IMG/VR virus record: IMGVR_UViG_2690316131_000006
Strand: one strand, 5' to 3'
Source: a virus
Lineage: Duplodnaviria; Heunggongvirae; Uroviricota; Caudoviricetes
DNA: 14,375 nucleotides
Made by a program: the position numbers and the translations under genes. Positions 1,884 through 2,558 of this stretch are shown piece after piece. The notes below the pieces were generated by a model that searched no databases, had not been told where the DNA came from, and saw only the letters and a program-made list of their open reading frames with translations. Positions within the stretch are counted from its first letter, which is position 1, and each line of letters begins with the position of its first letter.

Positions 1884-2558
1884 TCAGTCTAAGTATTGAT
1901 GTATTTGTGAAACTTTACCTTTAATGGTGTAACCACCATTCAGTTCGATGGGTTTGTAAAGCGGATTCAGTGACAACAGATAGATGTTTGGTCCGTCAAT
2001 CGCAACTTTTTTTAGTGTTACGTTTGGCGTTCCTTCCAATTGGATTAAGATTATTTTTCCCACCAGTTCTCTAATGTTACTTGAGCATGGTGTGATCAGC
2101 ACGGTAGATCCGTCGGGGATGGTTGGGAGGCCGTTAGAGTTTGTCATCGCATCTCCCTCAACATGCAATAAAAAAGAGTTTTCAGCGGTTTTTGTCATGA
2201 CATCAACCCAGTTCTTAATACCAGGAATCTTGGTTACTGGACAACTCATATCCCAATAACCAGCCTGTTCCCACGTTAAAACGGGCAACCGGGCGATGTT
2301 GTCACTAATGTAAGGGTACTGATTCAGACGCAGATCATCGGTTTTATCGTGACCGTCCTTTCCATAAAGAATCCATTCAGGAGATTTGGAAAGCAATTTT
2401 GACAGTAGATACAAATTCTCACCGTCAGGTTTTGAAGAGCCATTTTCCCATTTTGTTACGGATACACGAGATATGCCGATTGCTTTCGCAACCTGCTGTT
2501 GGGTTAATCCAACGTCTTTTCGACGATTCCGAATACGTTCGCTGATAGTGTTTTTCAT
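1884..2558 (-). CDS. Prophage repressor, CI/C2-like: N-terminal XRE-type helix-turn-helix plus C-terminal S24 (LexA-like) peptidase domain; catalytic Ser replaced by Ala
   Basis: N-terminus MKNTISERIRNRRK...GLTQQQVAKAIGISRVSVTKWENG resembles P22 C2 as I recall it; C-terminal ...HVEGDAMT...TLKKVAIDG...LNPLYKP aligns with λ CI ...EVEGNSMT...FTFKKLIRD...LNPQYP. Candidate Ala-Gly cleavage site at QAGYW. Start chosen at ATG 2558 (224 aa) so that both operator palindromes fall in the intergenic region; the ORF track's longer start at 2657 overlaps the cro-like gene. Confidence 0.85.
   Translation of the reverse strand: MKNTISERIRNRRKDVGLTQQQVAKAIGISRVSVTKWENGSSKPDGENLYLLSKLLSKSPEWILYGKDGHDKTDDLRLNQYPYISDNIARLPVLTWEQAGYWDMSCPVTKIPGIKNWVDVMTKTAENSFLLHVEGDAMTNSNGLPTIPDGSTVLITPCSSNIRELVGKIILIQLEGTPNVTLKKVAIDGPNIYLLSLNPLYKPIELNGGYTIKGKVSQIHQYLD

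Follow-up and report, generated by a model that had tools for sequence, protein, structure and literature searches.

A lambdoid prophage repressor of Escherichia coli with alanine at the catalytic serine position of its S24 domain

What becomes of a lambdoid prophage whose repressor has kept a self-cleaving domain but carries another residue in place of its nucleophile? The question is raised by a repressor gene in IMG/VR virus record IMGVR_UViG_2690316131_000006 (Duplodnaviria; Heunggongvirae; Uroviricota; Caudoviricetes), a stretch of 14,375 nucleotides that we analyzed as a whole and refer to as the window. Repressor self-cleavage is the standard textbook mechanism through which DNA damage induces a lambdoid prophage, and in this protein the nucleophile alone is lost. 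An earlier note on this DNA had read alanine at the catalytic serine position of the S24 peptidase domain (motif GDAM, 2148-2156), and this is borne out by phmmer, by MAFFT and by relatives that carry GDSM. We find that the alanine allele is old, near fixation in its immunity group and selectively maintained. The protein is probably a natural ind-minus-type, SOS-blind lambdoid immunity repressor that silences both early arms of its prophage.

Catalytic column of the repressor

The repressor gene lies on the minus strand at 1884..2558, with the stop codon TGA at 1884-1886 and a probable ATG start at 2556-2558, and in the list of open reading frames (ORFs) it encodes 224 amino acids (MKNTISERIR...). 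The RefSeq-style call starts at 2598-2600 and gives a product of 238 amino acids, whose numbering is used below. A Cro/C1-type helix-turn-helix (HTH) DNA-binding domain occupies residues 23-77 (2370..2534, minus strand; Pfam HTH_3, PF01381, 3.9e-17), and a Peptidase_S24-like C-terminal domain occupies residues 106-230 (1911..2285, minus strand; PF00717, 1.1e-16), the match spanning profile positions 1-115 of 116. The best match in a phmmer search against PDB sequences is lambda repressor (3bdn, 3.7e-14), followed by the N-terminal domain of P22 C2 (1.4e-12). An AlphaFold2 model, calculated with 33 homologues (mean per-residue confidence score pLDDT 81.5), was compared with known structures using Foldseek. 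It superimposes on full-length lambda repressor (3bdn) and on the lambda C-terminal domain (1f39) with a root mean square deviation (r.m.s.d.) of 2.2 Å, and its N-terminal domain on that of P22 C2 with an r.m.s.d. of 0.6 Å; LexA C-terminal domains are matched as well, S119A structures among them.

The codon GCG at 2148..2150 (minus strand) encodes Ala151 (Ala137 in the 224-residue numbering) in the motif GDAM, minus-strand positions 2156..2145 reading GGA GAT GCG ATG, and falls in the catalytic serine column of the S24 domain. The phmmer alignment pairs ‘llhvEGDAMTnsng’ of the repressor with ‘wleVEGNSMTaptg’ of lambda CI, and counting along chain 3bdn_A shows that the alanine faces Ser149, that the first lysine of TLKKV faces Lys192 and that QAGyw falls on Gln110-Ala111-Gly112. 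In lambda CI the nucleophilic attack is made by S149, with K192 as general base, on the scissile carbonyl of A111 (PMC9926225). The cleavage-site dipeptide Ala113-Gly114 of the window's repressor (GCT GGT, 2259..2264, minus strand), in QAGYW, is aligned with lambda Ala111-Gly112, and the general base Lys197 (AAA, 2010..2012, minus strand), in TLKKV, with lambda Lys192; both elements are retained, as the earlier note had stated.

The column was checked further, as that note had suggested, by a MAFFT alignment with LexA, lambda CI, P22 C2 and UmuD. Alanine stands in the serine column of all four proteins (S119 in LexA, S60 in UmuD). The closest serine-bearing relatives have GDSM at exactly this position, with the codons TCA or TCG, one transversion from GCA and GCG; the GCG codon is, as claimed, a single step from serine. 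A shifted alignment with a different serine as nucleophile was considered but discarded, because HMMER and MAFFT agree with each other and with the GDSM sister alleles. Inspection of the alignment revealed no substitute serine within the active-site motif of the Ala-type repressor, and the threonine two residues past the alanine is equally found in lambda CI and P22 C2.

Of the features that mark the self-cleaving S24 family, the fold, the general-base lysine and the Ala-Gly bond are present, and the nucleophilic serine of G-x-S-M is absent. Judged from its sequence, the protein is a member of the lambda CI/P22 C2 structural family that lacks the catalytic feature by which self-cleaving S24 repressors are defined. 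It shares with lambda CI and P22 C2 the two-domain architecture and fold, a divergent cro gene, palindromic right and left operators (OR and OL), the Ala-Gly dipeptide and the lysine, its N-terminal domain being closest to P22 C2 and its C-terminal domain closest to lambda CI. It differs from both in that alanine replaces the nucleophilic serine (S149 in lambda), and self-cleavage is predicted to be absent. The serine hydroxyl is removed here as it is in LexA S119A, and LexA S119A and lambda CI ind-minus are established non-cleavable mutants. By analogy with these, RecA-stimulated self-cleavage should be lost in the Ala-type repressor, whose C-terminal S24 domain is predicted to be catalytically dead; as in lambda CI, the domain would probably be kept for dimerization and cooperative operator binding. 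Unlike LexA S119A and lambda ind-minus, the alanine allele is natural, ancient and near fixation rather than engineered or selected in the laboratory. Because serine is absent from the S24 motif, the repressor should not be named a peptidase; its RefSeq label in E. coli is ‘LexA family protein’.

Frequency, age and selection of the alanine allele

Of 5426 complete E. coli genomes, 702 have the repressor gene and 681 contain an exact match to a 59-nucleotide query centered on the GCG codon. Ala types account for ∼693 records in these genomes and the Ser-type sister allele for 8, so that ∼99% of the E. coli genomes with this immunity type have alanine. The carriers of the alanine allele, ∼13% of complete E. 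coli genomes, include sequence type ST131, O111 and O26 (H19) strains as well as bovine, porcine and environmental isolates. In IMG/VR the Ala-type 30-mer is matched exactly on 87 contigs and the Ser-type 30-mer on 1; these matches are mostly prophage predictions from isolate genomes and do not by themselves show packaging. All but one of the 86 full-length Ala-type copies there have an intact ORF, and the Ala-Gly dipeptide, the alanine and the lysine are invariant in all 86 sequences formed by the 85 intact copies and the window. Sequencing error and private mutation were rejected as explanations, given the identical 59-mer in 681 genomes and the 85 intact IMG/VR copies.

Homologous repressors, whose comparison the earlier note had also called for, fall into five clusters. 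Alanine is found in c1 (E. coli and E. albertii; GCG), c2 (E. coli; GCG) and c4 (Salmonella; GCA), and serine in c3 (E. coli; TCA) and c5 (Enterobacter bugandensis; TCG), each member read carrying the residue of its cluster. Among the 71 hits of a first search, homologues of ≤52% identity that cover the column all have serine, with the exception of a degenerate sequence (P0027). A neighbor-joining tree and nucleotide distances give the order ((((c1,c2),c3),c4),c5), support for c1 + c2 being only 47.5%. This topology together with the residues implies that the codon has changed at least twice, and the codons fit two losses and one loss plus a reversion at equal cost.

The two Ala lineages c1 and c2 are apart at a synonymous divergence (dS) of about 0.55-0.7. 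Their C-terminal domains differ by 43 synonymous and 12 nonsynonymous changes (nonsynonymous divergence (dN) 0.040, dS 0.717, omega 0.06), and within c1 this domain has 14 synonymous versus 5 nonsynonymous variants. Measured against the Salmonella cluster, the Ala lineage (dN 0.196) is no more distant than the Ser lineage (0.193-0.217). The disarmed C-terminal domain is conserved as strongly as a working one, under strong purifying selection.

In a full HMMER scan of 1.84 billion cluster representatives, 104 of the top 150 hits were full-length HTH-S24 relatives. In these 104 representatives of 50%-identity clusters, the nucleophile column holds serine in 88, threonine in 7, alanine in 5 and other residues in 4, and the lysine column holds lysine in 95; on the basis of the best 150 hits, ∼15% of related cluster representatives are without serine. 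Variants of the cleavage site occur in closer relatives (QVG in P0019 and P0116, QAV in P0058), and P0027 has a degenerate S24 motif. These repressors and P0010 have Val in place of the scissile Ala or Gly, have lost the dipeptide or have a degenerate motif, and on their sequences such variants should also block cleavage. The representatives without serine and the cleavage-site variants indicate that natural disarming of the protease is recurrent, which lowers the novelty of the single residue; prophages may often pass through such disarming as they are domesticated.

Immunity region and prophages of the two alleles

The repressor is flanked by three 16-bp palindromes of the form GTAAC-N4-GTTAC. 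A pattern search found 4 sites versus 0.40 expected, and no shuffled sequence reached 4. The right operator TGTAACTATTGTTACC (2606..2621) adjoins a TTGACA hexamer and is identical in all five clusters. A second right operator, TGTAACCAATGTTACC (2558..2573), is located 48 bp from the first and abuts the probable start codon of the repressor. The left operator GGTAACAAGAGTTACC (1795..1810), a perfect palindrome, lies between the repressor terminator and a ydfA-like gene. The operator sequences are conserved in all five clusters, and c1-c5 thus form one immunity group. Directly after the repressor stop codon the minus strand reads AACCCGCA-TTCAT-TGCGGGTT followed by a run of T (1854..1878), a hairpin that looks like an intrinsic terminator; a consensus scan did not list it. 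A scan of positions 1600-2900 for consensus sigma-70 promoters gave no match.

The position of the second right operator bears on the start of the repressor. The longest minus-strand ORF covering the gene (1884..2657) begins at TTG, and the 14 codons (2559-2600) by which the 238-residue form exceeds the 224-residue form overlap the operator at 2558-2573. These codons also carry the variants K4I, A5V, T6I, L8I and G10S, five among the variants of residues 1-95 listed for the IMG/VR copies (the single Ser-type copy included). The N terminus of the 224-residue form aligns with the start of P22 C2 (residue 6), and 224-residue versions are also present at NCBI. For these reasons the ATG at 2556-2558 is probably the true start, and the repressor transcript possibly has little or no leader, as in lambda cI.

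Divergent from the repressor are a Cro-like gene of 71 amino acids (2650..2865, plus strand; P22_Cro family, PF14549, 7.5e-15) and a YdaT-family gene of 141 amino acids (2862..3287, plus strand; PF06254, 2.8e-10). YdaT has been described as a CII equivalent (PMC9986795). The neighbors had been taken for a YdaS/YdaT-like pair; the YdaT assignment stands, whereas the upstream partner belongs to the P22_Cro family and not to YdaS. Downstream of the left operator is a left (PL-type) operon (1..1692, minus strand), defined by Pfam, Rfam and the RefSeq annotation of a 99.6%-identical locus (L001). It comprises, all on the minus strand, a ydfA-like DUF1391 gene (1456-1692), a ydfB-like ORF known from the RefSeq annotation of identical loci, ydfC (1078-1296), an ORF of 124 amino acids (681-1055), the small RNA (sRNA) DicF (323-374; Rfam, 75.8 bits) and the start of dicB (1-148). 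An N-terminal HTH domain, a divergent cro-like gene and palindromic operators, one of them before the left operon, are the marks of a lambdoid CI/C2-type system, and by its sequence the region is a standard lambdoid immunity region in the style of Qin, Rac and CP-933P. This architecture suggests that the repressor acts on the early promoters and confers superinfection immunity.

The locus resembles that of DicA in Qin, which has an HTH of the P22 C2 type and controls a ydfA-ydfB-ydfC-DicF-dicB left operon. DicA is reported to be a short protein without an S24 domain, unlike the repressor in the window, which keeps the full domain and has lost the nucleophile alone. DicA, the C2-like Qin repressor, is essential because it silences dicB and DicF (PMC11481867). 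As with PaaR2 of CP-933P and RacR of Rac, which stand beside YdaS and YdaT, the repressor is divergent from Cro-like and YdaT (CII-like) genes. PaaR2 has no peptidase motif and is unresponsive to mitomycin C (PMC8630535). PaaR2 and RacR are unrelated to the present protein, in which the peptidase domain is present but disarmed.

The Ala-type module is ≥99% identical at a minimum of four attachment sites in several E. coli lineages and E. albertii: ompW (JJ1887, 2013C-3181), yccA (O111 FWSEC0005, and also a c2 locus, L015), potC (H19) and tRNA-Ser/mtfA (MS6192). The prophages around it differ in their integrases, replication genes and Q modules, and all six that we examined contain a lesion. 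The prophage of 2013C-3181 is interrupted by IS421. In that of JJ1887 (ST131, ompW), ISEcp1-blaCTX-M-15 is inserted in the tape-measure gene and ISEc12 in lom, O111 FWSEC0005 has an integrase frameshift and IS1203 in exo, and MS6192 an integrase frameshift. H19, the weakest case, has a short ‘Rha family’ ORF in the usual place of ydaT. The window itself has a CAG to TAG nonsense change at 3844-3846 in its replication-initiator gene.

This gene encodes an O-like protein (HTH_36), and two 99.6%-identical loci have CAG at the same position; the TAG splits the 320-residue protein into ORFs 3295-3846 and 3889-4272. Barring a sequencing error at the TAG, the window's prophage copy is probably defective in replication. 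The blaCTX-M-15 insertion of JJ1887 corresponds to 10533-13305 of our locus entry L014 and to 1470532-1473304 of NZ_CP014316.1. It follows that a chromosomal extended-spectrum beta-lactamase gene resides in a prophage that is predicted to be unresponsive to SOS.

In 3 of the 5 Ser-type prophages examined, stx2 (Shiga toxin 2) lies just downstream of Q: stx2a in O178:H19 2012C-4431, whose prophage appears complete, and in JNE170426, and stx2d in STEC434. The Ser allele is the immunity repressor of these Stx2a and Stx2d prophages (entries L021 19056-20296, L022 25421-26661 and L024 24220-25460). Stx2 release depends on SOS induction, and the split between the alleles therefore fits ‘Ser inducible, Ala not’, on small samples.

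The window is a mosaic, with positions 97-4277 99.6% identical to 2013C-3181 and positions 2854-14375 99.7% identical to FORC_042; in the immunity slot of this otherwise 99.7%-identical backbone, FORC_042 has racR and a different cro-like gene. Above the Rfam gathering score we located the sok antitoxin RNA of the hokD locus (7164-7338, plus strand), STnc100 (13542-13734, plus strand) and the anti-GcvB sRNA AgvB (13736-13797, minus strand). A RelE-family toxin gene and the HTH gene beside it (11861-12199 and 12260-12634), a probable toxin-antitoxin pair from their sequences, occupy the late-region moron slot, which is the stx position in Stx phages, and are followed by a TerB-family gene (12942-13373). 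A LexA-like site, TACTGTAAAAATATCCAGTT (10774-10793), scores 22.2 with a rough matrix built from E. coli LexA sites. The site, which overlaps codons 3-9 of a gene (10766-11791) that encodes a DNA methyltransferase and lies downstream of Q, is conserved in JJ1887 and has one change in 2013C-3181. The window contains no perfect LexA box (CTGT-N8-ACAG) and 8 boxes with one mismatch versus 4.4 expected, which is not significant.

A probable SOS-blind repressor and its alternatives

If the protein is, as seems probable, an SOS-blind repressor, it would still dimerize and bind the three GTAAC-N4-GTTAC operators, two on the right and one on the left. In doing so it would shut the left arm (ydfA-ydfC-DicF-dicB-exo-xis-int) and the right arm (cro-ydaT-replication) and make the lysogen immune to phages that share these operators. 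With the serine hydroxyl gone, the repressor would not attack its own Ala-Gly bond, activated RecA could not inactivate it, and the prophage would be unresponsive to SOS via repressor self-cleavage. The expected outcome is that of lambda cI ind-minus, namely a prophage not inducible by SOS, dominant immunity and ∼1000-fold lower induction; in the mouse gut, lambda cI ind-minus cuts induction ∼1000-fold and removes the induction cost of lysogeny of 1-2% per generation (PMC4752277). The host would be the likely beneficiary: it would keep its immunity, and neither the prophage nor dicB/DicF would kill it upon SOS. The earlier note had offered two scenarios. One, a prophage locked in lysogeny, if pictured as a single recent event, is a misfit with an allele that is old, ∼99% fixed, found at several sites and recurrent in Salmonella. 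The other, a domesticated repressor that silences its neighbors, would fit better, given the lesions in all six prophages and the place of DicF and dicB in the left arm that the repressor would control.

Several points weigh against an SOS-blind repressor. The predicted loss of cleavage derives from the analogy with LexA S119A and lambda ind-minus mutants. The Ala-Gly dipeptide and the lysine are invariant under purifying selection though they should be useless to a dead protease, and the cleavage-site architecture may still serve some purpose. The ≥99% identity of the module across sites implies recent horizontal spread, which would be easier with some inducible carriers, and the comparison of lesions in six Ala-type with stx2 in five Ser-type prophages is anecdotal. 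The phage collection contains no repressor of >60% identity; because the Ser-type allele is equally absent from it, this absence carries no weight for or against a locked prophage.

The invariant dipeptide and lysine would be explained if the protein were still cleaved, by a different nucleophile of its own or in trans by a serine-bearing S24 protein resident in the same cell. Homoimmune Ser-type repressors with the same operators do exist in E. coli, and intermolecular cleavage has been reported in vitro for LexA and lambda CI. It is established for UmuD (PMC9926225). However, the motif offers no alternative serine, its threonine is shared with lambda CI and P22 C2, Ala homodimers are without an active site, and the Ser alleles are so rare (8 records) that a partner would usually be absent. 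We regard such cleavage as highly unlikely. A similarly slim chance attaches to the view that the alanine is without functional meaning, being a sequencing error or a passenger, neutral or mildly harmful, of a cryptic prophage in decay. The change is a single nucleotide and many carriers are defective prophages, but 681 complete genomes and 85 IMG/VR copies share the codon. The alanine is fixed in two lineages that have diverged from each other, and it is present independently in Salmonella. The gene is intact in 85 of 86 copies and its C-terminal domain has an omega of 0.06, so that this view is largely refuted.

Less improbable, though still unlikely, is a repressor that is uncleavable in a phage that is nonetheless a working temperate one, induced by an antirepressor or small-protein module (with its genes away from the immunity region and possibly LexA-controlled), by a host protease or by a high rate of spontaneous switching. 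The recent spread of the module over at least four attachment sites and several host lineages favors residual mobility, and the alanine state has persisted over a dS of about 0.55-0.7. There are precedents in the Gifsy repressors, which are lambdoid and uncleaved on induction, being inactivated by LexA-controlled, trans-acting antirepressors (PMC3121763), and in SOS-independent small-protein modules (PMC10432266). The likeness to Gifsy lies in uncleavability, which is a prediction here; unlike in Gifsy, no cognate antirepressor was identified, and Gifsy repressors are not reported with an S24 domain. A Rha-family gene lies near attR in JJ1887, but a rough matrix scan found no LexA-like box before the Rha and ash genes of that prophage. 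The one strong LexA-box-like site in the window's prophage (10774-10793) overlaps the start of the DNA methyltransferase gene and not an antirepressor candidate. Moreover, no antirepressor gene travels with the immunity module, the backbones vary between genomes, and the lesions in all six Ala-type prophages argue against induction by such a route.

An SOS-blind repressor that silences both early arms remains the reading that we prefer. A further proposal, which we put forward tentatively and hold to be doubtful, is that the codon is an evolutionary toggle, T<->G, between SOS-inducible and SOS-proof states, the former represented by the Stx2a and Stx2d prophages. The Ala-Gly dipeptide, the lysine and the pocket would be kept by purifying selection and the switch would be reversible, with alanine providing SOS-resistant, dominant immunity against homoimmune Stx2 phages.

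Searches of open-access papers turned up neither an account of this protein nor one of any natural Ser-to-Ala CI-type repressor from E. coli. The residue change is simple and its consequence predictable; what deserves attention is its age, near fixation, recurrence and selection, and its pairing with a Ser allele in Stx2 phages. Labels such as ‘LexA family protein’ or ‘S24 peptidase’ credit the protein with more than it can do, and predictions of prophage induction, for example under quinolones, should not assume that these elements respond to SOS. With the Ser allele and the same operators found in Stx2 prophages, the Ala-type repressor may hold back homoimmune Stx2 phages in a dominant fashion. 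Should the toggle exist, the mostly defective Ala-type prophages of ST131, O26, O111 and other strains would block lysogenic conversion by Stx2 phages, and in double lysogens they would block Stx2 prophage induction and toxin release.

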